From Spirochaetota bacterium (GTDB lineage: Bacteria; Spirochaetota; UBA4802; UBA5550), in contig JALOTL010000014.1 of the NCBI GenBank assembly GCA_025457915.1, positions 5,156 to 69,155 of the forward strand: a DNA stretch of 64,000 bases. Reading direction: 5' to 3'. Position numbers and translations under genes: made by a program. Under the pieces are notes generated by a model. It searched no databases. It saw only the letters and a program-made list of their open reading frames with translations, and had not been told where the DNA came from. Positions 7,259-49,959 of this stretch are shown here, piece by piece; position 1 is the first letter of the stretch, and each line of letters starts with the position of its first letter.

Positions 7259-7272
7259 GATCAAATAGCCGC

Positions 7273-10727: not shown

Positions 10728-10799
10728 GGACGCACTCCTTTCATCATTCCAGCCGTAAATAAAAACTTACTCCCGCCGTCCGGGAATACAGCGGACCCG

Positions 10800-17871: not shown

Positions 17872-18174
17872 TTATTCAGCCACATCATTACTCTTTTTCT
17901 TTTTTACCGGTTTACTCAGTAACGAAATTCCGTCAAAATCTATAACGTTTCTATCGGGATCACCATTCACCCTTATACCATACGACTGTTCAGTATTAGT
18001 TGTGAATATCATAATCGCATTCAAGTTCCACTCGGATACGATACGCTCCCACAGCTTATCCTTCACCCGTGCCCCGACATCGGCGACGAAAACGCCGCTT
18101 TTAACCTCAATAGCTAACCGCGACATCTCGCCCCTCTGCGAAGGGGTCGATTTCTCCAACATAATCACTACCAT
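17872..18174 (-). CDS. cas2: Cas2 (type I-E)
   Basis: MVVIMLEKSTPSQRGEMSRLAIEVKSGVFVADVGARVKDKLWERI... aligns with E. coli Cas2 ([47 protein letters not shown]...). Confidence 0.9.
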   Translation of the reverse strand: MVVIMLEKSTPSQRGEMSRLAIEVKSGVFVADVGARVKDKLWERIVSEWNLNAIMIFTTNTEQSYGIRVNGDPDRNVIDFDGISLLSKPVKKKKSNDVAE

Positions 18175-18991: not shown

Positions 18992-18993
18992 GG

Positions 18994-20695: not shown

Positions 20696-20706
20696 TGTGT
20701 TACTCC

Positions 20707-21348
20707 TTATTGTAATTTTAACGGTTGTATGACCATCATGCCGAACCCGAAGCCCTTGGCGCTGCCTATACCCATCATAAATGCCTTTTTAAAGGCTTCT
20801 CGATCTATAACTTCGAGGACTCCCTGAAATCTGATGCCTACGTGAAGCCCAGGGTCACTTTTAATCTGATTTTTTATAAACCGATAATTTTGCGCAGGCT
20901 CAATAAAAAGCGGGGGATCATCCAAAACTGAAAAGCCACTCTCTTGTGCCTTTCTGTTAAACCAGTTGATCTGATCTTCCAATATTGTAAGCGCTTTTCT
21001 CATTCCATTTTTAGTACGTTTACCCTTATCATCTGTTTTGGGAATCTTTTTCGTTGGATTTGCTTTTATATCGAAACGATAAAAATTATGATCAAGAAAA
21101 TCATTTTTTAATTCCCTTACCGCCCAACAATCTTCAGGACACCATTCGGGACGCATAGGCTCTTGTAATGCCAGAATAAAAAGCCGAAAACCTCTCTCAA
21201 CCGTATCGACCCTGAACAGAAAATCCCTAGTTTTATCAGGCTCACCGGGAAATGCCTTCCATGCGGCTTTATGCCATGCATAAACGTCAAAAAGCCTGTA
21301 ACGTGCCGCGGTTTTACAGTCTATTACAGCTTTACTCAGGTATTTCAT
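20707..21348 (-). CDS. cas6e: Cas6e (CasE), crRNA endoribonuclease; located upstream of cas7e/cas5e (non-canonical order)
   Basis: From the internal Met the product reads MKYLSKAVIDCKTAARYRLFDVYAWHKAAWKAFPGEPDKTRDFLFRVD..., aligning to E. coli CasE (MYLSKVII...LYQLHQGLWHLFPNRPDAARDFLFHVE). It has a Gly-rich C-terminal loop (GSAKGFGFG). The ORF extends to 21408 but the start at 21348 is preferred. Confidence 0.88.
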   Translation of the reverse strand: MKYLSKAVIDCKTAARYRLFDVYAWHKAAWKAFPGEPDKTRDFLFRVDTVERGFRLFILALQEPMRPEWCPEDCWAVRELKNDFLDHNFYRFDIKANPTKKIPKTDDKGKRTKNGMRKALTILEDQINWFNRKAQESGFSVLDDPPLFIEPAQNYRFIKNQIKSDPGLHVGIRFQGVLEVIDREAFKKAFMMGIGSAKGFGFGMMVIQPLKLQ

Positions 21349-21835
21349 CGACCACCTCCGCCCCAGACGCCCAGAAGGAAGTCGCCCAACGGGTTTTAAC
21401 ATTATCACCCCAATAGATCAGATCACTTTCCAGTAGGACGTAATTAACCGGTAATCCTTCCGCTTTTGCTCTCAGTACAATCCTTTTCACCCGTTCGCAA
21501 ATCTCATCTCGATTTGAGGCAATAAGGTATTGCAATCGCTTGGCCATTGTGCCAGGTTTAGAGTCAACTTTTCTTAATTCATTCCTTTCATCATCGCTGC
21601 ATAATTGAAAACACAATGAACCGATATTTCCTTTTAAAGTAGGCTCTGGATGGCTTGCGAATAATCCAGCAACGGTTTGTTTTACCCGAGCCTCATGTTC
21701 ATCTCCTATTCCGCCAAAATAGCCAAGATGCGGATATGCCCGAAAACGTTTGCTTTCAACCAGTGCGCATCGAAGATCGGCCATTAAACCCCGGTCATCC
21801 TTTTTCTTAACCAAATAATCAAGTAAAGCGCTCAT
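21332..21835 (-). CDS. cse2: Cse2 (CasB), Cascade small subunit
   Basis: The 167-aa alpha-helical protein sits between cse1 and cas6e. The motif ...DRGLMADLRCAL... is typical of Cse2. Confidence 0.75.
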   Translation of the reverse strand: MSALLDYLVKKKDDRGLMADLRCALVESKRFRAYPHLGYFGGIGDEHEARVKQTVAGLFASHPEPTLKGNIGSLCFQLCSDDERNELRKVDSKPGTMAKRLQYLIASNRDEICERVKRIVLRAKAEGLPVNYVLLESDLIYWGDNVKTRWATSFWASGAEVVDEIPE

Positions 21836-23469
21836 AGGTTTTCCTCCTCTTGATTTGTTTTTACCTGAATCGAATTAGTATCTTGTTCTTTTTTATTTAA
21901 AACCCTCCAGCCAAGCACAAAGGCCCTTATCTGACGCGGGGTTTCTCTGCCGCATACAAGCTTATACGATTCACGGGCTGCAGCAAAAAGTGTTTTCTGC
22001 CAAACTTTACGTGTTGCTTCGACTTTTTCAGCTGATGTACCTATTGCTTCAATATACAACATCAACAGCGGAAGTGATTTTTCGATAGTAGTCCAGTAGT
22101 GGGTGGTGGCTTTGGAATGTATTTGTACACGCAATAAATAAGATGAGCTGCTGCTCTTCAATCTCCCCTCCCAACCACCATCAAAAGCTTTTCTATATTC
22201 TTCTATCGCCCAGCCTAACTTCTTCGATATTATTTCTGCGAACTGGACTTCATTTTCATAAGCTGCTCGTCCTGCATTACTAAACATTTTTTCATTCACA
22301 TGATATACACTATCTACCATATCAATAATTGAAGCTTGGTCTCGTGCTAAAGCGAGTATATGAAAATCAACGGATTCATTCTGATCAATATTCATCAGGC
22401 ATAGTGGGCCTCCTGCTTGTTGTGCTTTTCTTTTAACAACCATAGATGGAAGCTCTCGCCACGTTGCCGTTTCAGGATTGAATCTTAACAACGAAAAAAT
22501 TTGTTTTTTTGTGTTTCTTGACAAAATTACGGTTGCAGTAACTTCTGGCGGGAAAGGTATTTTTGAATTAAATGATCGATACATTAATCCTTCACCAATG
22601 ATCATGCAATCACATGATGGAAGAATTCTTATAAGACGACTTAGCGGCACCAATCTTCCTAGATACGTCTCTGTGGCATTATTGATGAAATCTACATCTG
22701 ACCGTTTTGATGGAAATTTTTCCCATATTGGGTTGCCCCAATAGTTTTCTCCCAGTGGTGAGTAATGCATTCGTAGTTCTTTTTTTGTTATTAGATTCTT
22801 ATTAATCGTCTTAGCGATATTTGAAGATCTGATGAAACAATGATACATACTGCCTGGTGAACAGGGACCATCCGATGGATTTGGAGGTTTTTTTTCTGGT
22901 GGAATACCGCCCCATATTACTGCTGCTGTTTTACCACCTGCAAGGAAAAAATTCTGAAATGATAAAAGTTGCACAGCAATTTCAGAAGGGCTGAACTCCC
23001 GGAGAATTTGAGATGATGCTTCATGATCGAATAAGGTCGGATTGACACCTGATGCTAGCGTATGATCTAGTTTGCTTAATGATATCTGTCCGCCCTCATC
23101 ATCATTGTCTTGGTTTTTATCCATTTGTGACTTTGTTAAATTTGCTATCTGCAAAAAAGGCTTCTTGGGATGAAACAAATCGAAGGAATCACGCCATTTA
23201 TCCAGATAGTTTCGTGCAGCTCCGGGAAGTATTTCTTTCGCATTGAGCCAATCATCGTAATCTTCTGGCCCATCAAGCGAGGCATGTGCAATGCAGAGCA
23301 ATAAACGCATGAGAGATACTCGCTCGTGCGGTCTGACTGCAAGATCAGCATAATTTTCACCATCGGCAAAAACATCCATCAAGCCGATCAATCTATATTC
23401 ACCTTTCAAATTAGTGACAGGTATCCACTTTTCATCGACAAGATTGAATCCCTTATTCTGACGATTCAT
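21832..23469 (-). CDS. cse1: Cse1 (CasA / Cas8e), Cascade large subunit
   Basis: From the internal Met the product reads MNRQNKGFNLVDEKWIPVTNLKG..., matching the Cse1 N-terminus (MNLLIDNWIPVR...). It is about 545 aa. The ORF as called extends to 23487 and overlaps cas3. Confidence 0.85.
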   Translation of the reverse strand: MNRQNKGFNLVDEKWIPVTNLKGEYRLIGLMDVFADGENYADLAVRPHERVSLMRLLLCIAHASLDGPEDYDDWLNAKEILPGAARNYLDKWRDSFDLFHPKKPFLQIANLTKSQMDKNQDNDDEGGQISLSKLDHTLASGVNPTLFDHEASSQILREFSPSEIAVQLLSFQNFFLAGGKTAAVIWGGIPPEKKPPNPSDGPCSPGSMYHCFIRSSNIAKTINKNLITKKELRMHYSPLGENYWGNPIWEKFPSKRSDVDFINNATETYLGRLVPLSRLIRILPSCDCMIIGEGLMYRSFNSKIPFPPEVTATVILSRNTKKQIFSLLRFNPETATWRELPSMVVKRKAQQAGGPLCLMNIDQNESVDFHILALARDQASIIDMVDSVYHVNEKMFSNAGRAAYENEVQFAEIISKKLGWAIEEYRKAFDGGWEGRLKSSSSSYLLRVQIHSKATTHYWTTIEKSLPLLMLYIEAIGTSAEKVEATRKVWQKTLFAAARESYKLVCGRETPRQIRAFVLGWRVLNKKEQDTNSIQVKTNQEEENL

Positions 23470-26020
23470 CAGACACCCCCTGGGCACGTATTATTTCCAA
23501 ACCTTTATCAATAGTCCATTTAAGTCTTATTCCTTTTTTCAAATTAGCGACATCGAGAAAGCCTCCATCACCAGGCACTGATAAAATCACACAGCCTGAA
23601 ACATATTTCGGAAGATAAGCTAAAGATATTTTTTTTTCGAAAACCCATGCGGGCACTTTAACAAGATTTTTTTGAATCGCTTTTCCAGTATCCTTGCTTT
23701 TCTTCCCGGTTTTTTCTTCTTTTCGGGGTATTTGAGAACCGTTTAATAGAATAATAAAATTATCTAATCGCTCTCTGGCAAGTATTATGGACACCGTCGA
23801 CTGGGTATTATAGCGAGTCATTACTTCTTCTTCATCGTCAAGTGATGGCATTTTTAAAATCGCTGTGGCAATTAGAGCTTTCTGCATGAGACCGTTCTTT
23901 TTTTCATGCAAGTCAGCTTTAAGCTCTTTCCATGATTCTGATGGTTCAACATTTTCGGAATAAGTATATTCTATAATTGAACGGATATCAAAGGGAATTA
24001 AGATGGTTTTGGTGTCACGCTTTTTCCACTCCATATAGGTTCGAAGCAAAACATAAGGATCGTATACATATGCTTTATTTCCTAATGCTTTACGAATTTC
24101 GCTCGATGTCATTTCAATGGATTGCTGAATATTAAAACTCTCCTTAAGAATCCAGAGTTCCGGCTTTTCAATTGGCCGTAAATGCCGATTGTGTCTCCAC
24201 AATCTCCCGATACGTTGGAGAAGCATATCAGTCGGTGCAAGTTCGGTTATAATCAAGTCGGCATCGATATCCACGCTCTGTTCTACAACCTGAGTAGCTA
24301 CCAGAATACATGAACCGCGCCCATTCCCATTTTTTCCAAGTTTTTCTAGCCATTTTTGCTCAATCTCCTCTCTTCTAAAAAACGGAAATCGAGAATGTAA
24401 AAGGCCGATCTCGACTGATCCTCGGTTTTCTTTATGTTTAAAAGAGTCGTATATTTCCTGTGAACGGGCAATAGTATCGCATATCCAAACTATCGAAGCT
24501 CCATTTTGCGCTTTTCCCCATGCATTAGAAATTGCTTTATTTTCATCAATAAAGCGTATGGCTATTTCTTTATTTTCTGGAGAATCAAGCGTAACGTCTG
24601 GTAGTATTTGTCCATCTGCGGTTTTTCCGCTGAGAAGAGGGTACCCGTTTGAGGAAGTCTTTTCATCATTATCAATGTCAAGCAATTCTATTCGCCGCGT
24701 TGCAGTAAGCGTGGCAGAGAGTATAATTACTGTGGCGCCAAGTTGTACGAGAGATCGACATAAATTATTTATGAGTGTTCCAGTATATATATCATAGGAA
24801 TGCACTTCATCAAGAATCACCACTTTGCCAGCCAGCGCAAACAGGCGAACAAAGAAATGCTTAACAGCTATAACACCCATGAGCGCCTGGTCTACAGTTC
24901 CTACACCAAATGGTGAAAGCAATGCGCGTTTTGGAGATGAAAACCAATCATATGCTGAGTCTCTTTCTTGGCTATCTCCATCAGGGTTGTTATTAATCTC
25001 CGGGATTTCAATTTTGTCATCTAATAACCAAGAGTTGCCGTGTATTAATTGTATAGATAGTGTTTTTTCGCAGATTCTATTGATAAAATCGACAACCCTT
25101 AGATGGATACGATTACTTGTAGTTTGGGTGGGGAGCGCAAAATAAATACCCGAAGCCTTTCCACTATTACAAAGCTGATAAGCAACGGAAAGTGCGGCTT
25201 CTGTTTTCCCTATACCCATAGGTGCTTCAATGACATAAATACCAGGCTCTTTTATAAATGCATTAACTGCAGTCTGTAGAGCATTTGCCTCGAATTCGAA
25301 GTAATCATAGAAATGCTTGCCGTTAATAATTGAAGGACGCACAAAACCAATATTATATAATGCTTCTTGGGTCCGTATTCTCGATTCTTCTGGGGGGATA
25401 TTACTCCCGGCAGGAAAAAACCGCTCATCGGACCCGATCCAATCGGACACCGTTGTCAAACCTGCAACAAACCAAAGGAGTGGATTGTCCGGTTTAACCG
25501 GGGAACTAATCAATTTGCCGTTGTTTTCAATAAAACTCTTTGCTACTTGACGACGCTTTTCTTCCCAGTAATCGTCACTCATTCCGAATCCCGGCAATAA
25601 TCCTCTCTCTCCATTATAGGTTATCCGACCGTGATGAGCGCCGATGGCCGCAGCCCAAAGCGTTGATGACATGCGGTCAAGTCCTGTATCCATTAATAAG
25701 TGCTCAATAGTATATTGGCTTACTTGAGAATGATTATATGGTGAGTTATCCCATCCATTTCGAATATCTTCCTTTTCCAAATTATACTTATGAAGCCACC
25801 CATGGCATTTCCTTTGAAATTGTGGAGAGATTTTACCTAAATCATGAAGGCCCGAGAGTATGGAAATATCAGTATTGGTAATATCAATACTGATTCTGGG
25901 ATAAAATATCGAAAAAATGCATTTTGCTACTGATGCAACATTTTGCATGTGGTGGTAAACATCTATCCCTGGGTTTTTATCTTCTGTTGTTTTTGCCCAA
26001 AATTCAATGTTATTCTGCAT
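23453..26020 (-). CDS. cas3: Cas3, HD nuclease fused to a superfamily-2 DEAH helicase
   Basis: The N-terminal HD domain has ...VYHHMQNVASV...LHDLGKISPQFQ.... The helicase has Walker A (APMGIGKTEAAL), a DEVH box (VILDEVHSYD) and motif VI (QRIGRLWR). The product is 855 aa. Confidence 0.93.
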   Translation of the reverse strand: MQNNIEFWAKTTEDKNPGIDVYHHMQNVASVAKCIFSIFYPRISIDITNTDISILSGLHDLGKISPQFQRKCHGWLHKYNLEKEDIRNGWDNSPYNHSQVSQYTIEHLLMDTGLDRMSSTLWAAAIGAHHGRITYNGERGLLPGFGMSDDYWEEKRRQVAKSFIENNGKLISSPVKPDNPLLWFVAGLTTVSDWIGSDERFFPAGSNIPPEESRIRTQEALYNIGFVRPSIINGKHFYDYFEFEANALQTAVNAFIKEPGIYVIEAPMGIGKTEAALSVAYQLCNSGKASGIYFALPTQTTSNRIHLRVVDFINRICEKTLSIQLIHGNSWLLDDKIEIPEINNNPDGDSQERDSAYDWFSSPKRALLSPFGVGTVDQALMGVIAVKHFFVRLFALAGKVVILDEVHSYDIYTGTLINNLCRSLVQLGATVIILSATLTATRRIELLDIDNDEKTSSNGYPLLSGKTADGQILPDVTLDSPENKEIAIRFIDENKAISNAWGKAQNGASIVWICDTIARSQEIYDSFKHKENRGSVEIGLLHSRFPFFRREEIEQKWLEKLGKNGNGRGSCILVATQVVEQSVDIDADLIITELAPTDMLLQRIGRLWRHNRHLRPIEKPELWILKESFNIQQSIEMTSSEIRKALGNKAYVYDPYVLLRTYMEWKKRDTKTILIPFDIRSIIEYTYSENVEPSESWKELKADLHEKKNGLMQKALIATAILKMPSLDDEEEVMTRYNTQSTVSIILARERLDNFIILLNGSQIPRKEEKTGKKSKDTGKAIQKNLVKVPAWVFEKKISLAYLPKYVSGCVILSVPGDGGFLDVANLKKGIRLKWTIDKGLEIIRAQGVSDESSE

Positions 26021-26290
26021 TATTTATAAAACCAATATCTAATATTAATAATTGCTTAATAATTATTTTCATCTCCCCGTCTTTACAACATACAATCTCC
26101 TCCCTGACAGAAAGTGACATATACATCCGTTTGGCACCCAAAAAGAGTTGAAACTTTTTAAAATATATATAATAATATTATTATATGCAAACTGTTTTTT
26201 ATAGTTTTAACTTTTCATTTTGAAGTAATTTAATTATGCGTTAAAAAACATCTTTGATCTTAGTATTAATATTTTTTAGGAGCTATTCCA
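26021..26290. promoter_or_regulatory. AT-rich divergent promoter region between cas3 and the WYL regulator gene, containing a 20-bp perfect palindrome
   Basis: The 270-bp intergenic region is very AT-rich. A perfect palindrome ATATAATAATATTATTATAT lies at 26167-26186. The RBS AGGAGCTATTCC precedes the WYL gene ATG at 26291. Confidence 0.5.
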
Positions 26291-27262
26291 ATGAAATATG
26301 GCAAACCTCTCCTCTCAAGGATACAATTTATTGATGCCCGTATCCGTGATGGTAAATATCCCAATTCACGTAAACTTGCAGAAGAGTATGAGGTTAGTGA
26401 ACGAACTATTCACCGTGATATTGATTATATGAGGGACATGCTTGGTTGCCCAATAGAATATAATAAAAATAAACGTGGCTATTATTACGCAGAGCCCTTC
26501 TTTTCACTCCCTTCCGTACAAATAACCGAAAAAGAACTATTTGCATTTTGTGTAGCAGAAAAAGCATTAGAAGAATACCGTGCTACCCCTCTATATGACA
26601 CTTTAGCTAAAGTCTATAAAAAACTTACCGAAAATTTAACAGATGAAATTACAGCCAATTTTTCATGGTTAAATCCTGATATATCATTCATTCAACAAAG
26701 CACAACAATAATCACACCTTCAATCTGGGAAACAATATCTACTGCACTTTATACTCATTCTGTTTTAGATGCCAGTCATCGTAAAGCCGGCGCCACCAAA
26801 TCAACTAAACGCTTGATAGAGCCATATCATATGGCAATCTATGAAGGAGAATGGTATTTAATAGGCTACTGTAGATTAAAAAAAGAAACATTAATATTCG
26901 CAATATCACGATTTGAAAGTGTGAAACGTTTAAACGAAACATTTGTAAAACCAGAAACATTTAACATTAATGAATATTTAGGTTCTCATTTCGGTATAAC
27001 AAGAGAAAATGAGAATTATCAGGTCAAAGTGAAATTCAACTCCACAGCTGCACCTTATATCTTGGAACGTAATTGGTCTTGCGACCAAACAATAGATAAA
27101 AATAAAGATGGAAGTATTATTTTAACTTTTAAATCAAATTCTATCAAAGAAGTAAAGCGCTGGGTCTTAAGTTGGGGTTCAACAGTTGAGGTTATTTCCC
27201 CAAATGAGTTAGTACTGGATATTTATAATGAATTAAAATTGATGATAGAAAATTACAAATAA
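26291..27262 (+). CDS. HTH-WYL-domain transcriptional regulator (DeoR-type HTH N-terminus, central WYL domain, C-terminal WCX-like extension)
   Basis: The N-terminus carries the HTH ...YPNSRKLAEEYEVSERTIHRDIDYM.... The WYL motif reads ...RLIEPYHMAIYEGEWYLIGYCRLKKETLIFAISRF.... The gene is divergent from cas3. Confidence 0.8.
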   Translation: MKYGKPLLSRIQFIDARIRDGKYPNSRKLAEEYEVSERTIHRDIDYMRDMLGCPIEYNKNKRGYYYAEPFFSLPSVQITEKELFAFCVAEKALEEYRATPLYDTLAKVYKKLTENLTDEITANFSWLNPDISFIQQSTTIITPSIWETISTALYTHSVLDASHRKAGATKSTKRLIEPYHMAIYEGEWYLIGYCRLKKETLIFAISRFESVKRLNETFVKPETFNINEYLGSHFGITRENENYQVKVKFNSTAAPYILERNWSCDQTIDKNKDGSIILTFKSNSIKEVKRWVLSWGSTVEVISPNELVLDIYNELKLMIENYK

Positions 27263-34024: not shown

Positions 34025-34389
34025 TCCGGACGTCAACTGTTTTTTAAGTTTTTTTTTACGGCGCATATTTTTATTAAACCGGCGGGAATACCGCGCGTCA
34101 CGATGCATGACCCGTCAATACTTCCAGCATCCGTGTGGTTAATTATTAATATTGGATCAAGTAAAAAACAATTAACATTCCCTGCCGGCATCCTGGCTGA
34201 GCCATGCCGCTCATTACAATATTATGGATTGAAAAATCTTATCAACAGCTGCGAATTTCCCCGGTAGCATTCAATAAAAAAACCGTAATACCAGCATATC
34301 GGCATGCGGATTTTCCCTCGATGTGCGGCACATAAAATGGGGGCCGGTCACACCGACCAGGGGGCGGTATATAGTTTCCGGTAAATTTT

Positions 34390-34417
34390 ATAGGCGCCGA
34401 TTCGAATCGGCGCCTAT
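34390..34417. repeat. 28-bp perfect palindrome (core GGCGCCGATTCGAATCGGCGCC), copy 1, downstream of paralog 1
   Basis: ATAGGCGCCGATTCGAATCGGCGCCTAT is self-complementary over 28 bp. It is followed at 34428-34500 by three degenerate 19-bp units (CCGATGCYTGTRTRTAACC). Confidence 0.7.
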
Positions 34418-34521
34418 GGATAAATCTCGATGCTTGTGTGTAACCCCGATGCCTGTATATAACCCGGCGCCTGTATGAAACGGGGCCCGTACAGGCAGGC
34501 ATCATCCCCGGCATCCCTTCC

Positions 34522-35415
34522 TCAGTTCTCCTTCCCTCCGCCGAAGCCTATGAAGTACGACGCAGCGAGGGTTACGCCGTAGAAATGGTCGTCCCGCAGG
34601 TGCTGTTTATTCGGGAAGTTATGCACGTACTGGTACCTGAACCCGGCTGATATGGTGGTTGAAATCGGCTCTATCAAGTACGCCAGGGAAGGAGTAAGGT
34701 TTACGCCCAGGCCGCCGATGTACCTGCGGGTGTTGTAATTCGGCCATACCATCCATATGGTAAATTTCGAGAGAACCACTAAAGCCGAGGTGTCGTAATC
34801 GGAAGCGATCGTGGACGTCTGGACTATTGAAATGTTGGAAATGAAATAAAGCCCGGCCGCGATATGGACATTCAGGTTTACGCCGAGTCCGGGCGAATAG
34901 GAGCCTATCGAGGTCTTCTTTGGCATGTACCCTACGCCGTCCTTTGCCCCGATGTCCACGATAGGGGTCTTGTATTTATAAGACTGGTATTTGAACCCGA
35001 TGTAGAGCTTCAGGTAATCCGTGACCTGGTATCCCACCGTGGAATCCATGTCGTATTTGACCGTCTTGCTCTTCATGTAAACCGGGTTCCAATACGGTAA
35101 TTGCGTCATATCGGTTATAAATTCCGTCATCAAGGACCTGTAGCGCCCCATCAGGAACGTGCCTGACAGGTATAATTTTCCGATCTTTAATGATGCAATC
35201 GGACCGTAGAGGAACTCCGGATCGATTTTGATGTTTTCCTTCGCGTGAATAAATACGATTTTTTTATCGGGCCTTGGATTGAAATAACCGGGCGACCACC
35301 ACGCGTACCAGGTCATGGCGCCGACGCTCAATCCGTCTTCAGCGGATGCGCTGGAAAAAAGTCCGAAACACACGGTTATAAGGAAAAGAAATATTGCCGT
35401 GATAGTGTTTTTCAT
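34522..35415 (-). CDS. Secreted / outer-membrane hypothetical protein, paralog 1 of a three-member family (YAWWSP motif)
   Basis: The signal peptide is MKNTITAIFLFLITVCFGLFSSASA. The mature part is near-identical to the product of 38838..39740, and the C-terminal ~110 aa are identical. Its composition resembles a beta-strand-rich OMP. Confidence 0.6.
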   Translation of the reverse strand: MKNTITAIFLFLITVCFGLFSSASAEDGLSVGAMTWYAWWSPGYFNPRPDKKIVFIHAKENIKIDPEFLYGPIASLKIGKLYLSGTFLMGRYRSLMTEFITDMTQLPYWNPVYMKSKTVKYDMDSTVGYQVTDYLKLYIGFKYQSYKYKTPIVDIGAKDGVGYMPKKTSIGSYSPGLGVNLNVHIAAGLYFISNISIVQTSTIASDYDTSALVVLSKFTIWMVWPNYNTRRYIGGLGVNLTPSLAYLIEPISTTISAGFRYQYVHNFPNKQHLRDDHFYGVTLAASYFIGFGGGKEN

Positions 35416-35797
35416 ATATTCACCTGCTTTATGATTTCCTTGAGCTGTAAAAAATCCTTTAATCGCCCTCTCTAACCCATAGGGCATAATTTTAAAGTTA
35501 TGAAAATAAAATTATTGTTATAACATGGTTTTTTTAAAATTTTCCATTAATTATTTCGTCATTTTAATCATCTGCAGGTTATAATCCTGGCCACATCTTA
35601 TTTCAATAATGTTTTCAATTAAAACTTAATATTAAAATTTGTCCGAGGACCGGTTATTTTAATTTATTATTGACAATAAACAATTTTTTCTAAAACTTGT
35701 TTGAATAAATAACCGGCATCTATTCACATTTATAAAGCGCAGGCAAGAACTGTTATGTCAATGACACCATGTGGAATTCCCATAAGGGTTTGATCAG

Positions 35798-37267
35798 ATG
35801 CTTTTTAATTCAATTGAATTTATTGTCTTTTTTCCTATAGTTACTTTTCTTTATTTTTTTCTCCCACATAAATACAGATGGTCCATGCTTCTTGCGGCAA
35901 GCTGCATTTTTTACATGGCCTTCATACCTGTCTATATTTTCATCCTTGGAATAACAATTCTAATAGATTATACAGCTGCATTATGGATAGCATCTTCCGA
36001 GGGTAGGAAAAAAAAATTATATTTAATCATTAGTATTATTTCAACTTGTCTTGTTTTATTTGTTTTCAAGTATTTTAATTTCTTTAACAGTAATTTTGCG
36101 AGAATTGCATCTTTCTTCCACTGGAAGTATCCGATAGAGATCATAAATATTATCCTTCCCATAGGGCTTTCTTTTCACACGTTTCAAAGCCTGAGCTATG
36201 TTATTGAGGTATACAGGGGAAACCAGAAACCGGAACGGCATTTCGGCGTATACGCGCTATATGTAATGTTTTATCCCCAGCTTGTTGCCGGACCTATCGA
36301 GAGGCCCCAAAATTTACTTCATCAATTCCATGAAGAGCATTTCATCAATTATTCGAGAATAACAGATGGACTCAAGCTGATGGCCTGGGGGATGTTCAAG
36401 AAGGTCGTAATTGCTGACAGATTGGCTATTCTTGTCAATCAGGTGTATAATGATCCGACAGTATATTCCGGCTTTCCATTGATTCTTGCGACTGTATTTT
36501 TTTCTTTTCAGATATATTGTGATTTTTCGGGATATTCGGATATAGCCATCGGTTCCGCCCAGGTTATGGGTTTTAGATTGATGGACAACTTCAACAGGCC
36601 CTATTTTTCCAAATCCGTAGCCGAATTCTGGAAGAGATGGCATATATCGCTGTCGAGCTGGTTCAGGGATTATCTCTATATTTCACTCGGGGGCAAAAAA
36701 GTCGGCAATAGCAGGTGGCAGTTTAATCTTTTTTTCACTTTCCTTGTAAGCGGATTATGGCACGGCGCCAATTGGACATTTGTCGCCTGGGGGGCGATTA
36801 ATGGGCTGTTTCTTTTATGCTCAATCTGGACTAAGAAATTAAGGGAAAAAATTGTCGCTGTCTCCGGAATTTACAGGTTCCCTAGGTTTTATAAATACAT
36901 GAGGGTATTGTTTGTTTTTTCATTAATCAGCTTCGCCTGGATTTTTTTCAGGGCAAAAAATATTTCGGATGCATATTACATAATAACCCACATGTTTAAA
37001 AATCTGATTAATGTGAATGTTATCTCCAAGAATCTGCTGATAATATCGCATGGATGGCTGAAATTGACCGGTTATGAAATAATTATTTCAATACTTATGA
37101 TATTGTTCATGGAAGCGGTTCACTTGATTCAAAGACACGGGAGCATCAGGCGCATGCTTTCCGAGAAGCCGGTATGGGTAAGATGGTCCATATATTTTAT
37201 AATTACATACAGTATCATATTTTTCGGCGTGTTCGATAATACTCAATTTATTTATTTTCAGTTTTAA
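35798..37267 (+). CDS. MBOAT-family membrane-bound O-acyltransferase (AlgI/DltB-like)
   Basis: Multi-TM helices are present with the conserved MBOAT His region (...FWKRWHISLSSWFRDYLYISLGG...). The gene is low-GC relative to its surroundings. Confidence 0.8.
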   Translation: MLFNSIEFIVFFPIVTFLYFFLPHKYRWSMLLAASCIFYMAFIPVYIFILGITILIDYTAALWIASSEGRKKKLYLIISIISTCLVLFVFKYFNFFNSNFARIASFFHWKYPIEIINIILPIGLSFHTFQSLSYVIEVYRGNQKPERHFGVYALYVMFYPQLVAGPIERPQNLLHQFHEEHFINYSRITDGLKLMAWGMFKKVVIADRLAILVNQVYNDPTVYSGFPLILATVFFSFQIYCDFSGYSDIAIGSAQVMGFRLMDNFNRPYFSKSVAEFWKRWHISLSSWFRDYLYISLGGKKVGNSRWQFNLFFTFLVSGLWHGANWTFVAWGAINGLFLLCSIWTKKLREKIVAVSGIYRFPRFYKYMRVLFVFSLISFAWIFFRAKNISDAYYIITHMFKNLINVNVISKNLLIISHGWLKLTGYEIIISILMILFMEAVHLIQRHGSIRRMLSEKPVWVRWSIYFIITYSIIFFGVFDNTQFIYFQF

Positions 37268-38314: not shown

Positions 38315-38722
38315 TCTTTCGCTTTTTTTCATCAATCTGAATCAAGAAACCATGCAGTCTCCCGATCGCTTTTAATATGCAAATCCCCAGTCAGCAAACC
38401 ATAGATGTTTAGACAAAGATAGGATTATGCGGTGAACTGAAGACCGGGAAGAAAGAGCAGAACGAGTTTCAATTTTGCATTACAGTTCATGATGCATTAT
38501 TGATTCGAACACCAATTGAATTAATTGAAACATCAATAAAGGCTACAAAACAGGAAATGGTGAAAGCAAGTAATGATGATTTTCTGAATGCAGCTTCAAC
38601 ACAGGCCACCACTCCGGGGGATGTGGTATTGTTCTCCGGGTACCGTCGCGGCAGGCGCGTTGTTCGCGGATATAAACTTCACCGACCAGGGATCGGTATA
38701 TATTTTCCGGTAAATTTTATAT

Positions 38723-38741
38723 GCGCCGATTAAAATCGGCG
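38723..38741. repeat. Palindrome copy 2 (variant GCGCCGATTAAAATCGGCG) downstream of paralog 2, with the same flanking TTCCGGTAAATTTTATA and 19-bp tandem units
   Basis: The stem is CGCCGAT/ATCGGCG with loop TAAA. Downstream are CCCGACGCTTGTGCATAACC, CGATGCTTGCGTGTAACC and CGGGGCCTGTATGGGCC. Confidence 0.6.
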
Positions 38742-38837
38742 TCCGTGTGCAGAGCCCGACGCTTGTGCATAACCCGATGCTTGCGTGTAACCCGGGGCCT
38801 GTATGGGCCGGCATCATCCCCGGTAATATCCCCCCCA

Positions 38838-39740
38838 TCAGTTCTCCTTCCCTCCCCCGAAGCCTATAAAATATGACGCCGCGAGGGTTACGCCGTAGAA
38901 ATGGTCGTCGCGCAGGTGCTGCTTGTTCGGGAAGTTATGCACGTACTGGTACCTGAACCCGGCCGATATGGTGGTTGAAATCGGTTCTATCAAGTACGCC
39001 AGGGAAGGCGTAAGGTTTACGCCCAGCCCGCCGATGTACCTGCGGGTGTTGTAATTCGGCCATATCATCGGGATGTTGTTTCCCGGGGTGAAAGGGAGAA
39101 GCACGAAGGCCGAGGTGCCGTAATCGGAAGCGATCGTGGACGTCTGGACTATTGAAATGTTGGAAATGAAATAAAGCCCGGCCGCGATATGTACGTTCAG
39201 GTTTACGCCCAGCCCGGGCGAATAGGAGCCTATCGAGGTCTTCTTGGGTATGTACCCTCCCCCGCCCCTTGCCCCGATATCCACGAAAGGGGTCTTGTAT
39301 TTATAAGACTGGTATTTGAACCCGATATAGAGCTTCAGGTAATCCGTGACAGGGTATCCCACGGTGGAATCCATGTCGTATTTTATCGTATTGTTCTTCA
39401 TGTAAACCGGGTTCCAGAACGGCATAAGGATCGGATCGGTGATGAATTCAGTCGTCACTGATTTGTAGCGCCCCATCAGGAACGTGCCTGACAGGTATAA
39501 TTTTCCGATCTTTAACGATGCGACCGGTCCGTAGAGGAACTCCGGGTCGATTTTGATGTTTTCCTTCGCGTGAATAAATACGATTTTTTTATCGAACCTT
39601 GGTGTGAAATAACTGGGCGACCACCACGCGTACCAGGTCATGGCGCCGACGCTCAATCCGTCTTCAGCGGACGCGCTGGAAAGAAGGCCTCCGAAGACAA
39701 AAAACAGCGCGAGACATATGACGTTCACGGTCGTTTTCAT
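38838..39740 (-). CDS. Secreted / outer-membrane hypothetical protein, paralog 2 (near-identical to paralog 1)
   Basis: The signal peptide is MKTTVNVICLALFFVFGGLLSSASA. The mature sequence differs from paralog 1 only in the central region, and the C-terminal halves are identical. Confidence 0.6.
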   Translation of the reverse strand: MKTTVNVICLALFFVFGGLLSSASAEDGLSVGAMTWYAWWSPSYFTPRFDKKIVFIHAKENIKIDPEFLYGPVASLKIGKLYLSGTFLMGRYKSVTTEFITDPILMPFWNPVYMKNNTIKYDMDSTVGYPVTDYLKLYIGFKYQSYKYKTPFVDIGARGGGGYIPKKTSIGSYSPGLGVNLNVHIAAGLYFISNISIVQTSTIASDYGTSAFVLLPFTPGNNIPMIWPNYNTRRYIGGLGVNLTPSLAYLIEPISTTISAGFRYQYVHNFPNKQHLRDDHFYGVTLAASYFIGFGGGKEN

Positions 39741-43218: not shown

Positions 43219-44205
43219 TTATATCTTGAAATTATACGTAACCGACAGCACGACCCCGTAGAAATAGTCAGTAGTGCCGTTGAAAACATCCCTGCCTGAA
43301 TACCCTAAAATTTTATTCTGAATCAGCATGGTAAACACGTTATATGTGCTGTCGTAGTAGCTGTGCACCAGCCTGCTGCAGTACATCTTCAGCATCTGGA
43401 AGCGGAACCCCGCGGACACGGTGACCGATGCGGCCGTAATATAATACGCGAGGGAAAGGCTCCCGTTCATTCCGGCGGCGTTGAATTTCTGGTTCTGCCT
43501 GTTCATGAATGCGTTCAACGACAGGGGGCTGAACGCCTTTTCGTTCCAGTCGACGTACGACCTCATGTAAACGCCTGAAAGGTTTCCCAGCAGGTACAGG
43601 TCCTCCGCGACCGGCAGGACCGTGCCCAGCCCCAGTCCCGCGCCGTATCCGTCTGATTCGGCCGTGTAGTTGTACAGCCAGAAATCCGCGGCCGTCGGGG
43701 CGCTGGTCAAAAACGTTTTCAACGGCCTGCTGCTGTAAGAGTAGCCCTGGTACTTGAACCCGCAGAAAATCTTCAGGTACGGCAGGGGGGAATAATTGAC
43801 CGTGGTGTCCGAATCGTATTTTTTCATCCGGAGCGAGACGTTCTGGGAGATAATGTCCGGGCCGGGATATAATTTCATGCTTCCCCCGGTTTGGCCGTAG
43901 GGAGAGCCCATGGTGAACACGGAGGAGAAGCTCCATTCGTCCGAGACCTTCACTGACACCGCGGGCCCGTATAAAAACGAACCGGACTCCTTCCATCTGG
44001 ACCGCAAGTAGATTTCACCGTATTCCATATAGTGCAGGGCCTTGATCCTGTTCGAGTACCTGTTCTGGAAATAATTCTTGAAATACGGCGACCACCACGC
44101 GTACCAGGCCATCGGTCCCGCGCTGATTTCCAGCGCACGTGCGGGTCCCATAAAAGAGTTTAGCAGAAACAACGAAAACAGGGCAAGCAGGGTGATCTTC
44201 TTCAT
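43219..44205 (-). CDS. Secreted / outer-membrane hypothetical protein, divergent paralog 3 of the YAWWSP family
   Basis: The signal peptide is MKKITLLALFSLFLLNSFMGPARA. The motifs MAWYAWWSPYF and LKIFCGFKYQGYSY are shared with paralogs 1 and 2. Confidence 0.55.
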   Translation of the reverse strand: MKKITLLALFSLFLLNSFMGPARALEISAGPMAWYAWWSPYFKNYFQNRYSNRIKALHYMEYGEIYLRSRWKESGSFLYGPAVSVKVSDEWSFSSVFTMGSPYGQTGGSMKLYPGPDIISQNVSLRMKKYDSDTTVNYSPLPYLKIFCGFKYQGYSYSSRPLKTFLTSAPTAADFWLYNYTAESDGYGAGLGLGTVLPVAEDLYLLGNLSGVYMRSYVDWNEKAFSPLSLNAFMNRQNQKFNAAGMNGSLSLAYYITAASVTVSAGFRFQMLKMYCSRLVHSYYDSTYNVFTMLIQNKILGYSGRDVFNGTTDYFYGVVLSVTYNFKI

Positions 44206-44374
44206 ATGACCGCGCATCCAGTCACGCTTCCGGAGCGTTTTTTTTTACGGTCTAATGATTTTCCGGAGCTTGTATTTGTCAATTTGTAAATTTCCGGGGC
44301 TGAACGCCGCGCCCGTTTTTACGCGCCGCAAGATTTCCGGAAGGCTTTTTTTAATTGCCGTGAAAATCCGGCGC

Positions 44375-46094: not shown

Positions 46095-46255
46095 GATATT
46101 TTTATCCCGGGTATTAAACCCCCGTTCAATGGAACTGTCAAGCGCCAAAATCCACATATGTATATGATACTTGATTTTTGGTTTGACTCCGGCGCCTTTC
46201 GGGTCAATGCTAACGGCATAACGGCTTTCCATATCAACCGAAAGGAGCAACGTTT

Positions 46256-46903
46256 ATGCATTATTCGCCCGGGTATTATTTAATGATTTTAGCGCTGTTA
46301 TTTTCCGTGTTCACGGGGTGCAAGAAGGAAACCGCCGTGGTCGATTCTCCGGGCGGACTGGTGTTCAGGGACGCGCCCTCTGCGAATTCGAAGCGCATCT
46401 ATTCTCTCATCAACAATACCGGCGTGGTCGTCCTGGAAAACGGGCCGAGGGAAACCATCGGCGGGAAAACCGGCATCTGGCAGAAGGTCAGGGTCGGCTC
46501 CGACGAGGGATGGGTCTTCGGCGGGTACCTTTCAGGCAAAGTTCCCGAGGGCCGCAGGACGGAGTACCTGTTCTCCGCCGAGGGCAACAGCACGGCGGTC
46601 ATCTACCTCTCGTTATACAAAAACAAGTCGTTCGACCTGTATTTTGAAAGCATGCTGGACGGCGGGGAAAAATATACGGTCATCAAGGGGAAATGGAACA
46701 AACAGGGGAACGATATAGTCCTGAAATTCGACGCGGCCCAGCCTGGCTGTCCGGAATGCGCGGTAAAATATTTTTTCGTCAATTCGGACGGGAGGAAATG
46801 GGACAGCGCGGTCAGGATCATCGACGACAATACCTATTCCTTCGACAAATCCGTCGGCGGAATCGCCCTGTGGGGCGTAACCTGCATGAAATACGAATTC
46901 TAG
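46256..46903 (+). CDS. Lipoprotein with bacterial SH3-like domain
   Basis: The lipobox is LLFSVFTGC. The SH3b-like motifs are ...VFRDAPSANSKRIYSLINNTGVVVLE...GIWQKVRVGSDEGWVFGGYL. The RBS GAAAGGAGC precedes the start. Confidence 0.7.
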   Translation: MHYSPGYYLMILALLFSVFTGCKKETAVVDSPGGLVFRDAPSANSKRIYSLINNTGVVVLENGPRETIGGKTGIWQKVRVGSDEGWVFGGYLSGKVPEGRRTEYLFSAEGNSTAVIYLSLYKNKSFDLYFESMLDGGEKYTVIKGKWNKQGNDIVLKFDAAQPGCPECAVKYFFVNSDGRKWDSAVRIIDDNTYSFDKSVGGIALWGVTCMKYEF

Positions 46904-47147
46904 ACGATACGGCGGAACATGTCGGACCGCATTAATAAAAAAGGCGCCGGGCAAAGACTTTGAAATCCGTTATTTAAAAAATCCTTGTAATTCATCAGGT
47001 ATTGAATAATCATTGATAAAACCCGGTTCGGTAATGTCAGAGACATTAATAAAATCAGAAAATCTGATATCCGGATCCATGCGGTTAATAAGGATAAATT
47101 TAACATCAACTTTTATCAACAAATCAAATATCGGGGACAATGACTAC

Positions 47148-47414
47148 ATGAGCATGAATAAATTAAAAAAACATCTCGAGGAACTTAAATCGGAAGCAAA
47201 TAAACTCAAGGCCGGCGATAATGAAACGAGAGAGAAAATGACCGTCCTTATTTCCGAGATTGAGCATTTGCTGGAAAATCCGGACGATTCCGCTCACAGG
47301 AGCCTGGTAATCAATAACCTGCAGGACCATGTTGAGAATTTCGAAATCAAGCATCCCGATTTAACAGGGGTATTAAACCAGATTATGGTGATGCTCGGCA
47401 ATATGGGAATCTAG
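47148..47414 (+). CDS. Small coiled-coil protein (DUF4404-like)
   Basis: MSMNKLKKHLEELKSEANKLKAGDNETREKMTVLISEIEHLLENPDD... is 89 aa and low-GC. Confidence 0.5.
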   Translation: MSMNKLKKHLEELKSEANKLKAGDNETREKMTVLISEIEHLLENPDDSAHRSLVINNLQDHVENFEIKHPDLTGVLNQIMVMLGNMGI

Positions 47415-47734
47415 CGTCCGATTCATCAATCCGGGGCGGGCCGGGACCGCTATAATTCAGCCCCTTAGACGGTTGGCAATAAAATCCGCGATTCTTGCTT
47501 AAAGTTTGCTATTCTCTCCGATCCTGGTTACATTATATATGAAACTAGCGGGATGACCCCATATATAGATGGGAAAAAGCAGAAAAAAGAAGTTTGTATA
47601 TCATCCCCAAACAGAATTAAATATGTTAATGCTGTTTTGATGAAGGCCAGACCGTAAGAAAGTGTGGCCTTCTAATTTATAGATTGGGTATTTTATCCTT
47701 TTGATTCTGAATAAAGTATAAAAGAGGCGGCAAT

Positions 47735-48064
47735 ATGAAATATTACGATATTTTGTGGGATGAAAATCCAGGTATCAATCAAAAATTAGCTGTTGCTTTT
47801 GACCAGATAATTTCAACAAATAAAATATTCCCTCAATATGGGAAATACGGCAACTTCAATAGTTCACTTGCCAACAGAAGACCCCTCGGTTTTAAATTCT
47901 CGAATGAGCTGGAAGATAAGATCAAAAAAATTTTGAAAAAATTAAAGGTCATCGAGTATTTTAAAGAAAGAACGGCAGGGGAAGAGGAGTTAAAAAAAAC
48001 TACAACAAAAGCGGACATTCAGGGAGCTGGATCATGTGTTGCAGATATAACGGCAGCAACATGA
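47735..48064 (+). CDS. Hypothetical 109-aa protein (low-GC insert)
   Basis: The RBS AAAGAGGCGGCAATATG is present. No family was recognised. Confidence 0.45.
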   Translation: MKYYDILWDENPGINQKLAVAFDQIISTNKIFPQYGKYGNFNSSLANRRPLGFKFSNELEDKIKKILKKLKVIEYFKERTAGEEELKKTTTKADIQGAGSCVADITAAT

Positions 48065-48187
48065 TGCTGAGCCGAATGCATTTTAAAAGTCTTATGCTTG
48101 GATTCATTGTGTAAATACCCGTCTGATATTTCAGCATTGGCATCAACTGCAAGCGATCAAACATCGGAATGATTTTGTCGTCCAATC

Positions 48188-48246
48188 CCTCGCCGGAATC
48201 GCCCCGCGGGGCATCGCCTGCATGAAATACGAATTCCAGTCGATGA
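48188..48246 (+). repeat. Degenerate direct repeat of the 3' end of the SH3b lipoprotein gene (46852-46909)
   Basis: CCTCGCCGGAATCGCCCCGCGGGGCATCGCCTGCATGAAATACGAATTCCAGTCGATGA aligns with CGTCGGCGGAATCGCCCTGTGGGGCGTAACCTGCATGAAATACGAATTCTAGACGATA at roughly 85% identity. The stop TAG has become CAG. Confidence 0.65.
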
Positions 48247-48609
48247 CAAATTCATCGACCTCGCCTATTCAGACCCGCCTGGCCCGAAGGTATACCGGCA
48301 GGACATGTATCCGGTAAAAACATCGGGTCCCCCGATGTCGCGTCCCGCGGGCAACACCTGGTGATGCGGTTCTCCGAAATTAATGACCGCCCAGATGTTG
48401 AACCCGATACCGTTCCTGCCCCAGCCTTCGATCCGGGCCATGTAAAAAAGCTCCGCGCCTGCCGCTACCGATCCCGTCAATTTCCGCTGGACATGCCCCG
48501 CCGGGCGGGCATAAAATTAATTATTTTACAAAAAAATCACAACAAAAAACGCCCCCGGATCGTATATAATACAGGTACCTGAAACGGAAGGGAGCGGGAC
48601 AAAGCCTGA

Positions 48610-49167
48610 ATGATGAAATCGCTAATCGAACGGATCCGCGTCGCGCTGGACGGCGGCGACCCGGATAAAAGGGAGTCCCTGATGGAATACATCTGGTCGG
48701 AATACGGGCACAGGGTCTCGTATTATATCTCGACGATCGTTTCCAGGGACACGGCCCATTTCGACGACATCTTCCAGGACGCGATGATAAGAATTTTTGA
48801 AAACATCGGCTCTTACGATCCCGCCTATTCCTTCAACACGTGGATATACAGCATCGCCAGGAACCTTTGCTTCGACTACCTGAAAAGGCCGCAAAACGCG
48901 GCCGAAGGAATGCTGATGGATGATTTCCCCGACCCGGGAAGCGGCCCGCAGGAGGCGGCGCTAAGGGACGAGGTGATGCACAGGATCGACGCCTCGATCA
49001 GGGGGCTTTCTGCCGGGGACAGGGAAATCGCCTACCTCAGATTTTTTGAAAACCTGAGGTACAGGGAGATCAGCGCGCTCACGGGCGTGAAGCTTAATAC
49101 CGTGAAGGCGAAGCTCAGGCTGATAAAGGACAGACTGCGCGCCGGGCTCGGGGACATTTATTACTAG
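48610..49167 (+). CDS. ECF-type RNA polymerase sigma factor
   Basis: Region 2 is ...FQDAMIRIFENIGSYDPAYSFNTWIYSIARNLCFDYL.... Region 4 is ...YLRFFENLRYREISALTGVKLNTVKAKL.... Confidence 0.8.
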   Translation: MMKSLIERIRVALDGGDPDKRESLMEYIWSEYGHRVSYYISTIVSRDTAHFDDIFQDAMIRIFENIGSYDPAYSFNTWIYSIARNLCFDYLKRPQNAAEGMLMDDFPDPGSGPQEAALRDEVMHRIDASIRGLSAGDREIAYLRFFENLRYREISALTGVKLNTVKAKLRLIKDRLRAGLGDIYY

Positions 49168-49180
49168 GCGGAGGCTTGCC

Positions 49181-49513
49181 ATGGATATCGAAAAACGGCT
49201 GAAAAAGTACTACGGCATCAAGACGCGGGAAAGCGGAACGCCCGCTGATTTCAGCGCGGTAAAGCGCATGTGCCGTTTCGAGGCGCCGGCGCCGTTTTCC
49301 GGTTTAACCGTCAGCCTCCGTTTTTACGGCGCCGTGTGCCTTGTCCTGGCGGCGCTCGCGGTGTCCGGCTCGCTCTACACATCGCCCATACACGGGGTGA
49401 TGGACGGGGTCTTCCGGCCTTTCAATTCCGGGGACGCGGTATTCGCGGGCCTTAACGGCTTCAGGGTGCTTGTCCGGAAGGACCTGGAAAAAAATCAGGG
49501 AGAAAGAATATGA
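49181..49513 (+). CDS. Putative membrane-anchored anti-sigma factor
   Basis: It lies immediately downstream of the ECF sigma gene. It has a short cytoplasmic N-terminus, a single TM segment (AVCLVLAALAVSGSLY) and a short periplasmic tail. Confidence 0.45.
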   Translation: MDIEKRLKKYYGIKTRESGTPADFSAVKRMCRFEAPAPFSGLTVSLRFYGAVCLVLAALAVSGSLYTSPIHGVMDGVFRPFNSGDAVFAGLNGFRVLVRKDLEKNQGERI

Positions 49514-49959
49514 CTAAAATGTATTTCGTATGCGTGGCAATCATAGCCGGGATTTTCACAGGGGTCATGGCGCTCATCGGCGGGCTCGGGTATTTCTTCG
49601 ACCCGGCATCGGTCGCTTTCCTGTTCACGCCGGTGCTGTTCGTCCTCCTGACGAACTTCAGCCCGGGCGAAATTTTGAGGTCTTTCAGGGCGGCGATGTC
49701 CGGCTGCGACGCCGGCGCGGCTGAGCTCAGGAATTCGCTCCTCTTCTTCCGGACGGCGCAGAAGGCGCTGCTGGTGGTGGCGGTGCTCGGCTTCCTCACG
49801 GGCTTCATAACGATGGCGGCCGGCGAGAACGATTTGGGCAGGTTCAAGGTGGGGTTCGGCGTGGCGATCCTGGTCCTCTATTACGCGCTTGCCGGCATCA
49901 TGCTCGTCACGCTTCCCTTCACAAGCGCGCTGAAGAAGAAGCTGAACCGGCTCGGATAA
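49510..49959 (+). CDS. Hypothetical 4-TM membrane protein co-transcribed with the sigma/anti-sigma pair
   Basis: It overlaps the upstream stop (ATGA) and has four hydrophobic helices. Confidence 0.5.
   Translation: MTKMYFVCVAIIAGIFTGVMALIGGLGYFFDPASVAFLFTPVLFVLLTNFSPGEILRSFRAAMSGCDAGAAELRNSLLFFRTAQKALLVVAVLGFLTGFITMAAGENDLGRFKVGFGVAILVLYYALAGIMLVTLPFTSALKKKLNRLG

Follow-up and report, generated by a model that had tools for sequence, protein, structure and literature searches.

The 3' end of a lipoprotein gene in a spirochaete genome recurs about 1.3 kb downstream of itself, with AT-rich DNA in between. Does this arrangement record an integration at the end of a gene, and, if so, is the DNA between the two copies a single element? 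The locus lies in a 64-kb window, the whole stretch of DNA analysed here. A first-pass annotation of this window had proposed a two-gene insert and, on account of a second repeat at a phosphatase gene, a family of integrase-less elements that repeatedly enter at gene 3' ends. The features of the locus and its alignment with the related locus L003 are collected in Table 1.

Table 1. Features of the lipoprotein locus, with the blastn alignment to L003.
Feature	Position in window	Strand	Position in L003	Description
Phosphatase gene (Cache-HAMP-SpoIIE)	2610-4601			Basis of the other case in the first-pass annotation
SH3b (SH3_3) lipoprotein gene	46256-46903	+		Pfam SH3_3 E = 2.3e-07; lipobox FTGC; intact; target with duplicated 3' end
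Left repeat copy	46842-46908	+		Last 62 nt of the lipoprotein gene including the stop codon, plus 5 nt
43-nt spacer	46909-46951	+		54% GC, host-like; between left copy and AT-rich DNA
DUF4404 module	46952-47430 (end approximate)	+		GC 0.38; upstream non-coding DNA, gene, short tail
DUF4404 gene	47148-47414	+		88 aa; Pfam PF14357 E = 1.5e-19
109-aa-ORF segment	47431-48177 (start approximate)	+		GC 0.37; absent from L003
Conserved hairpin	47637-47671	+		35 nt, upstream of the 109-aa ORF; fold z = -4.9 and -6.9
109-aa ORF	47735-48064	+		83-aa conserved core and 26-aa C-terminal extension (alignment)
Right repeat copy	48178-48244	+		Non-coding; 21 nt past the stop of the convergent remnant
Truncated remnant of 302-aa protein gene	48265-48497	-		C-terminal 71 aa; BLASTP 72% identity, E = 2e-32
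ECF-type sigma factor gene	48610-49167	+		Conserved right flank, 88% nt identity to L003
Aligned block	46112-47427		893-2227	79% (blastn)
Aligned block	48208-48497		2238-2528	77% (blastn)
Aligned block	48495-49733		3156-4391	88% (blastn)
Window DNA absent from L003	47428-48207 (~780 nt)		2228-2237 (10 nt in its place)	blastn
L003 DNA absent from the window			2529-3155	No window counterpart (blastn)

The direct repeat is 67 nt long and its copies agree at 56 of the 67 positions (84%). A blastn search of the lipoprotein gene against the whole window recovers it with E = 1.2e-14, confirming the recurrence reported at first pass. Its local alignment score is 79, compared with 18.8 +/- 2.3 for 300 shuffles, and the 19-nt exact run inside it, CTGCATGAAATACGAATTC, occurs twice in the window against 0.02 matches expected. 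Folding of the copies gave z values of about 0, with no secondary structure. Outside the 67 nt, the lipoprotein gene resembles the downstream DNA neither at the DNA nor at the protein level. No longer stretch of coding sequence was thus duplicated along with the repeat, and the outcome that would have refuted the first-pass annotation did not occur.

The two copies are in different states. The left copy is the genuine end of the lipoprotein gene, and the non-identical homologues P0002 and L003 (85-86% aa) also stop at ...CMKYEF*. The right copy is crossed by no ORF of at least 40 aa, its old stop codon TAG now reads CAG, and four of its differences are amino-acid-changing. The lipoprotein itself is very rare, with two homologues among 5.8 billion proteins, one of them non-identical, and it has no paralogue elsewhere in the 64-kb window.

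The DNA between the copies is compositionally distinct from its surroundings. It has 38.1% GC and falls to 31% in 200-nt windows; the low GC of the insert had thus been correctly noted, but the flanks are at 52% and 57% and not at the ~65% estimated before. GC3 is 0.54 in the DUF4404 gene and 0.33 in the 109-aa ORF, compared with 0.75-0.77 in the flanking genes. The foreign DNA does not extend from repeat to repeat. At the right copy the AT-rich DNA directly adjoins, whereas at the left copy the spacer intervenes, so that the AT-rich stretch starts at about 46952 and not, as first proposed, at 46910. This spacer is common to the relatives L002 and L003, and it is missing 5' of the DUF4404 module in two other loci, L013 and L020. 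Part of the low GC is a trait of the DUF4404 family, because in L014, an unrelated high-GC context, the GC3 of the DUF4404 gene (0.54) is also below that of its neighbours (0.68-0.84).

Three related loci, L002, L003 and L018, were informative in the collections searched. L018 comes from the window's own strain (99.99% identical) and adds nothing, and exact-protein look-ups with the lipoprotein and the sigma factor likewise returned the same strain only (L001, L018, L019). An alignment search of genome and metagenome collections with the lipoprotein, in which an empty site was sought, gave no relatives and no empty site. In L002, the lipoprotein is 86% identical in amino acids and ends with ...CMKYEF*; the 65 nt past its stop codon align with the left junction of the window up to 46946, ending 5 nt before the module boundary. 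L003, a 4.4-kb sequence, was reached via its DUF4404 protein. It carries the lipoprotein gene, the DUF4404 gene, a 302-aa gene on the opposite strand and the ECF sigma factor gene, in an order collinear with the window, and its syntenic DUF4404 gene encodes a protein of 88% aa identity.

L003 also dates the duplication. Its DUF4404 module is directly followed by a decayed counterpart of the 3'-terminal 37 nt of the right copy, collinear with that of the window and separated from the left copy by about 590 nt. It is more decayed than the window's right copy, and a profile search recognises it no more than marginally (E = 0.066). The two right copies agree with each other at the sites that distinguish the left copy of the window from that of L003 (CG at positions 38-39, C at 41, A at 50), and the T-to-C change in the former stop codon is common to both. 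In the comparison of the four copies, this is how an outgroup to both left copies would be expected to look, which places the duplication before the window and L003 lineages separated. Change has been faster on the L003 side, which accounts for 9 of the 12 left-copy differences, and the DUF4404 upstream region of L003 has a GC content of 0.43 compared with 0.31 in the window. Because the duplication is common to L003 and both right copies are decayed, the scar reflects a past event and not present mobility.

Next to the right copy lies the convergent gene. This 302-aa gene is intact in L003; in the window, ~630 nt comprising its 5' part and the promoter are deleted, as judged by the blastn breakpoints. 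Ancestrally, it faced the lipoprotein gene as its convergent neighbour, and the right copy, 21 nt from the convergent stop, occupies the place expected for the lipoprotein gene's original 3' end after displacement. The locus is an indel hotspot, with an extra 188-aa gene upstream in L003 and two thirds of the convergent gene missing from the window.

These deletions would also suit a different origin, in which a tandem lipoprotein paralogue was deleted almost entirely and left nothing but the right copy, the AT-rich genes having arrived independently. The window does contain tandem paralogues with AT-rich DNA between them (34522-35487 and 38838-39740). However, a paralogue would be expected to leave more than 67 nt of similarity at the DNA or protein level, and neither the window nor the homologues retrieved from 5.8 billion proteins supply one. 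The fragment, moreover, lies exactly at the expected end of the convergent gene's neighbour, and its separate trimming would be needed in each of two lineages. We consider this origin improbable.

The AT-rich DNA encodes, as the first-pass annotation stated, a DUF4404-like small protein and an unknown 109-aa protein. The DUF4404 match is full-length, with 70.9 bits against a gathering cut-off of 27 and coverage of profile positions 1-83 of 83. The gene forms a module together with ~195 nt of conserved non-coding DNA upstream, including the 20-mer AAAAAATCCTTGTAATTCAT at 46976-46995, and a tail of ~16 nt past the stop codon, in which TTCATCA is kept in 4 of 4 contexts. L013, which is AT-rich (GC 38%), has exactly 46952-47428 in common with the window at 82.6% nucleotide identity, the DNA on either side being unrelated; the DUF4404 copies themselves are 85% identical and the upstream non-coding DNA 83.9%. 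L020 shares 46969-47414 in a non-syntenic context. Both of these AT-rich contigs contain the DUF4404 module without the lipoprotein gene and with reproducible ends.

Remoter DUF4404 genes lie in unrelated neighbourhoods, and among species-representative genomes the homologues are only 34-48% identical and belong mostly to Gammaproteobacteria. No papers on DUF4404 were found in the literature. The 88-aa protein gave nothing significant against PHROGs, PADLOC and NCBIfam, and DUF4404 had no match in viral contigs. A metagenome scan with a 19-nt motif from the DUF4404 upstream region returned 120 matches, with DUF4404 present in 0 of the 80 loci listed; these matches look like chance hits on an A-rich word.

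The 109-aa-ORF segment has a separate distribution. Loci L004-L009 share 47725-47989 (77%) and the hairpin (94%) with the window, the gene being in another context there. Homologues of the ORF are 83-99 aa long, and the window ORF carries the 26-aa extension. The family is extremely rare, with one cluster below E = 1e-10 among 1.84 billion representatives, and a relative of 33% identity occurs on two predicted viral contigs. Searches of Pfam, PHROGs, PADLOC and NCBIfam assigned the ORF to no family, and the AlphaFold model of the protein (pLDDT 48.5) is too poor for a fold search. We favour a later insertion of this segment in the window lineage over its deletion in L003, because the breakpoint between L003 and the window falls within a few bases of the DUF4404 module end defined by L013 and L020. 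A deletion in L003 would also be allowed by a borderline similarity (p about 0.045) and a GGGGC microhomology at the two junctions of the segment.

The insert is thus not the two-gene unit proposed at first. Because L003 has the DUF4404 gene without the 109-aa ORF and the module stands alone, with the same boundaries, in L013 and L020, the two modules were probably acquired separately. The content between the copies is a mosaic of spacer, DUF4404 module and 109-aa segment, not one element.

Machinery that could have moved this DNA was sought throughout. Neither the insert nor any other ORF scanned in the 64-kb window encodes an integrase, a transposase or another recombinase, in agreement with the first-pass statement that no integrase is retained. 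The region contains no terminal inverted repeats, no tRNA or tmRNA genes and no Rfam families. Phage and plasmid searches with the insert DNA and the 109-aa protein gave no match, CRISPR spacers compared with the insert and related loci matched over 13-20 nt only and never inside the insert, and no link of the insert to defence was found.

Two classes of element fit poorly. Direct repeats around inserted DNA recall the target-site duplication of a transposon or insertion sequence, but the region has neither terminal inverted repeats nor a transposase domain; transposase target duplications are typically short, and 67 nt is far longer. An integron gene cassette, which would call for intI nearby and an attC site 3' of each ORF, is disfavoured by the lack of an integrase among the window ORFs scanned and by the sole conserved hairpin, which lies 5' of the 109-aa ORF and not 3'.

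The proposal of an element family rested on the phosphatase gene, where the same architecture was thought to recur. The 3'-end copy there is real: the last 123 nt of the gene (4469-4591) are copied at 6797-6909 with ~89% identity and a 10-nt gap. However, the DNA between these copies has 60% GC and encodes genes of host composition, a sigma-70-type gene (GC3 0.79) and a 4Fe-4S gene (GC3 0.84), and the low-GC RelB/ParE pair lies outside the repeats. The phosphatase and lipoprotein repeats have no common sequence, their comparison scoring 16, which is the noise level. A further pair of repeats in the window, 92% identical (34351-35328 and 38680-39653), is made up of whole genes, two paralogues that enclose an AT-rich pair of MBOAT genes. 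The lipoprotein, phosphatase and MBOAT-flanking structures do not define one element family.

On the first-pass reading, cassettes that lack an integrase and are mobilised in trans would form a family that enters gene 3' ends time and again, duplicating the end on each occasion; the 109-aa segment would then be a second, nested insertion at the end of the DUF4404 gene. Two gene-3'-end fragments in one 64-kb window, the viral-contig relative of the 109-aa family, and the borderline resemblance (p about 0.045) of the DUF4404 end and tail to the DNA left of and inside the right copy all point in this direction. Nevertheless, no flanking direct repeats surround DUF4404 or 83-aa homologues in other genomes, and a third, degenerate repeat copy between the DUF4404 module and the 109-aa segment was not found, an nhmmer profile and local alignment remaining at null level. 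Mobilisation in trans also sits poorly with an old, decayed scar and with the negative searches for recombinases in the ORFs scanned, for terminal inverted repeats, for phage or plasmid relatives of the insert DNA and the 109-aa protein, for DUF4404 in viral contigs and for CRISPR spacers within the insert. Taken as a whole, this reading is very improbable. A broader version, in which AT-rich single-gene modules with their own upstream control region would enter one after another at gene 3' ends in this spirochaete lineage, either independently of a recombinase or in trans, duplicating 40-120 nt each time, would make the 109-aa segment a nested second event and the phosphatase fragment a third; it seems to us just as doubtful.

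The reading that we prefer, with a probability of about 50%, is that the locus is a degraded scar left when DNA inserted long ago at the lipoprotein gene's 3' end, with the geometry of an integrative element. The part of the earlier interpretation that concerned integration agrees with this geometry, with the intact end of the gene on the left, its displaced and non-coding copy on the right and compositionally foreign DNA between them. As in integrative elements, flanking direct repeats are present, one of them inside the 3' end of the target gene, and the target gene stays intact with an ORF ending like those of its homologues; the integrase expected near one end is missing from the insert and from the ORFs scanned in 64 kb. 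No empty site was found in any relative, so that we infer the polarity of the insertion. The repeat and its age, the module boundaries, the composition and the lack of recombinases in the window ORFs scanned are established here, and from a site-specific recombinase as the maker of the junctions, which we infer, the following course would result.

Not long before the lineages of the window and L003 diverged, foreign DNA would have come in at the lipoprotein gene's end. The gene would have retained a complete end, the present left copy, while its original end, the present right copy, would have been pushed downstream beside its old convergent neighbour and then have decayed, TAG becoming CAG. 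An AT-rich donor may have supplied the DUF4404 single-gene module. A second AT-rich segment, which bears the rare 109-aa orphan ORF and its upstream hairpin, would have been added in the window lineage alone. Any recombinase would since have been lost, and there is no sign of present mobility.

Several observations weigh against such a scar. Its smallest version, the about 590 nt of L003, is far under the size of any autonomous element, and neither the insert nor the window ORFs scanned encode a recombinase. The spacer parts the AT-rich DNA from the left copy. The copies resemble each other mainly 5' of the exact core, where an attP replacement fragment needs no resemblance, and the low GC3 of the DUF4404 family itself, as seen in L014, weakens the compositional argument.

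Much of this would be accommodated by an origin independent of any recombinase, in which lipoprotein-spacer-DUF4404 DNA of a related spirochaete entered the genome. Two routes are conceivable, homology within the lipoprotein gene on one side combined with an illegitimate join through microhomology on the other, or a small circle that integrates Campbell-style by way of the shared 3' end. Both would place the donor's gene end, spacer and DUF4404 module ahead of the recipient's last 67 nt. Studies of Acinetobacter and Streptococcus pneumoniae have described homology-facilitated illegitimate recombination. The spacer of normal GC and the lipoprotein-like 5' part of the repeat would then simply be a relative's donor DNA, the tiny insert of L003 would fit, and an integrase, of which the ORFs scanned gave no trace, would be unnecessary. 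The DUF4404 tail weakly resembles the 5' part of the right copy (p about 0.045), which points the same way, but this microhomology signal is borderline and the compared windows were picked post hoc. Moreover, events of this kind usually delete or replace recipient DNA and do not duplicate it, and 67 nt at 84% identity is short for a RecA-dependent crossover, although they were perhaps identical when the event took place. We rank this origin second, as a possible but clearly less probable one.

An integration scar of the preferred kind has well-described counterparts. Integrative elements in protein-coding genes carry a fragment of the target gene in attP, and the displaced fragment is found at the far end of the element; such elements may be degraded, and where att sites are restored they may line up in tandem arrays (Mageeney et al. 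2020, PMC7192596). Like these, the lipoprotein locus combines a preserved target function with a displaced fragment at the other end and compositionally foreign inserted DNA, and the second acquisition beside one repeat copy resembles a tandem array (PMC7192596). Unlike them, it has neither the int gene nor the length of at least 2 kb by which they are defined, and, unlike their arrays, it shows no third att copy between the modules and no empty reference site was found (PMC7192596).

The e14 prophage of Escherichia coli K-12 is flanked by icd and by the C-terminal pseudogene icdC (PMC13626634). There, as here, an intact target gene end runs into the insert, a non-functional C-terminal fragment lies on the far side, and the copies are similar and not identical. 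e14, however, is 15 kb long, has its own integrase and still excises, whereas the present insert is 0.6-1.3 kb long, with a 67-nt duplication and no recombinase. SGI1-type islands at the trmE 3' end share integration at the 3' end of a protein-coding gene; SGI1 is large, integrase-bearing and mobilised by a helper plasmid, none of which is seen at this locus (PMC8409611). By analogy, the locus is best read as a further example of an integration scar of the e14/icd-icdC type, which is a known kind.

Beyond annotation, the locus matters little. In the annotation, the 67-nt right copy should appear as a displaced fragment of the lipoprotein gene, and 48265-48497 as a truncated pseudogene. An undescribed route of gene gain would come into view only if the improbable serial-insertion reading were correct. 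A flanking repeat together with a drop in GC can mimic a single cassette even though the content is a mosaic of different ages. Our analysis also indicates that small orphan genes can persist at an indel hotspot in a higher-GC spirochaete genome after the integration machinery is gone.

The Cache-HAMP-SpoIIE phosphatase gene, which the first-pass annotation had regarded as the first case of such a duplication, has its 3' end repeated downstream in a copy sharing ~89% identity with the original and containing one 10-nt gap. The DNA between the two, which has a host-like GC content (0.60), harbors two genes, one of sigma-70 type and one of 4Fe–4S type. Further duplicated DNA is found in the window, where two segments of ~1 kb (34351-35328 and 38680-39653) share 92% identity and contain a pair of secreted-protein genes. 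The DNA lying between these paralogues is 35% GC. The cas genes also have a GC content (~40%) far lower than that of host genes, and adjoin a large CRISPR array with 57 spacers, 55 of which are 32 nt long. Two spacers each occur twice, and none from this array matches the insert, the AT-rich DNA between the two copies of the lipoprotein gene 3' end.

Features of the window, with counterparts at other loci where available
Feature	Coordinates	Strand	Remarks
Cache-HAMP-SpoIIE phosphatase 3' end	4469-4591		
113-nt copy of this 3' end	6797-6909		2.3 kb downstream
RelB-like antitoxin/ParE toxin pair	7092-7527		low GC; directly right of phosphatase fragment
Further SpoIIE gene	7934-9286		beyond the 3'-end copy
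CRISPR array	14327-17830		58 repeats of 29 nt, CGGTTCATCCCCACATGCGTGGGGAATAC
cas genes, including Cas1 and Cas3 HD-helicase	within 18107-27262	minus	
WYL/WCX/HTH regulator	26291-27262		next to CRISPR array, as are cas genes
Secreted-protein paralogue, complete	34522-35487	minus	inside ~1-kb duplication
MBOAT acyltransferase	35798-37267		with 345-aa partner, between the paralogues
Secreted-protein paralogue, complete	38838-39740	minus	inside ~1-kb duplication
Third secreted-protein paralogue	43219-44217		
35-nt hairpin	47637-47671; L004 9836-9870		5' of 109-aa ORF
Truncated pseudogene	48265-48497	minus	C-terminal 71 aa of 302-aa protein intact in L003

Within the insert, the 109-aa ORF is preceded by a hairpin that shares 94% identity with the equivalent site in loci L004-L009, which harbor homologues of this ORF in other gene contexts, whereas the coding region there is only 77% identical. 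The hairpin is strongly structured (z = -4.9 and -6.9), and has no Rfam match. In the alignment, the 109-aa ORF possesses a 26-aa C-terminal extension (47984-48064) lacking in its homologues of 83-99 aa, and this extension likely arose through loss of the ancestral stop codon. In L004, from an unrelated genome, an 11-nt unit with the core TTTCATG is repeated in tandem approximately nine times 3' of the 83-aa homologue (10634-10732), and these repeats look iteron-like.

The DUF4404 gene of the insert has an upstream 20-nt motif, AAAAAATYCTTGTAATTCAT (46976-46995), which is found ~85-170 nt 5' of DUF4404 genes at five loci (the window, L003, L013, L020, and L010). The motif may represent a promoter or operator of the DUF4404 gene family. 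Scanning bulk metagenome data with the motif alone gave only matches that appear to be due to chance.

The truncated pseudogene shows 72% identity (E = 2e-32) to the 302-aa protein of L003, a related locus with the lipoprotein and DUF4404 genes, and compared with L003 it has lost ~630 nt, including the gene start. Moreover, L003 contains an additional gene (within 245-892) between the methyltransferase and lipoprotein genes, encoding a 188-aa protein with no family match. This gene is missing from the window, and the locus is therefore variable both upstream and downstream of the lipoprotein gene.
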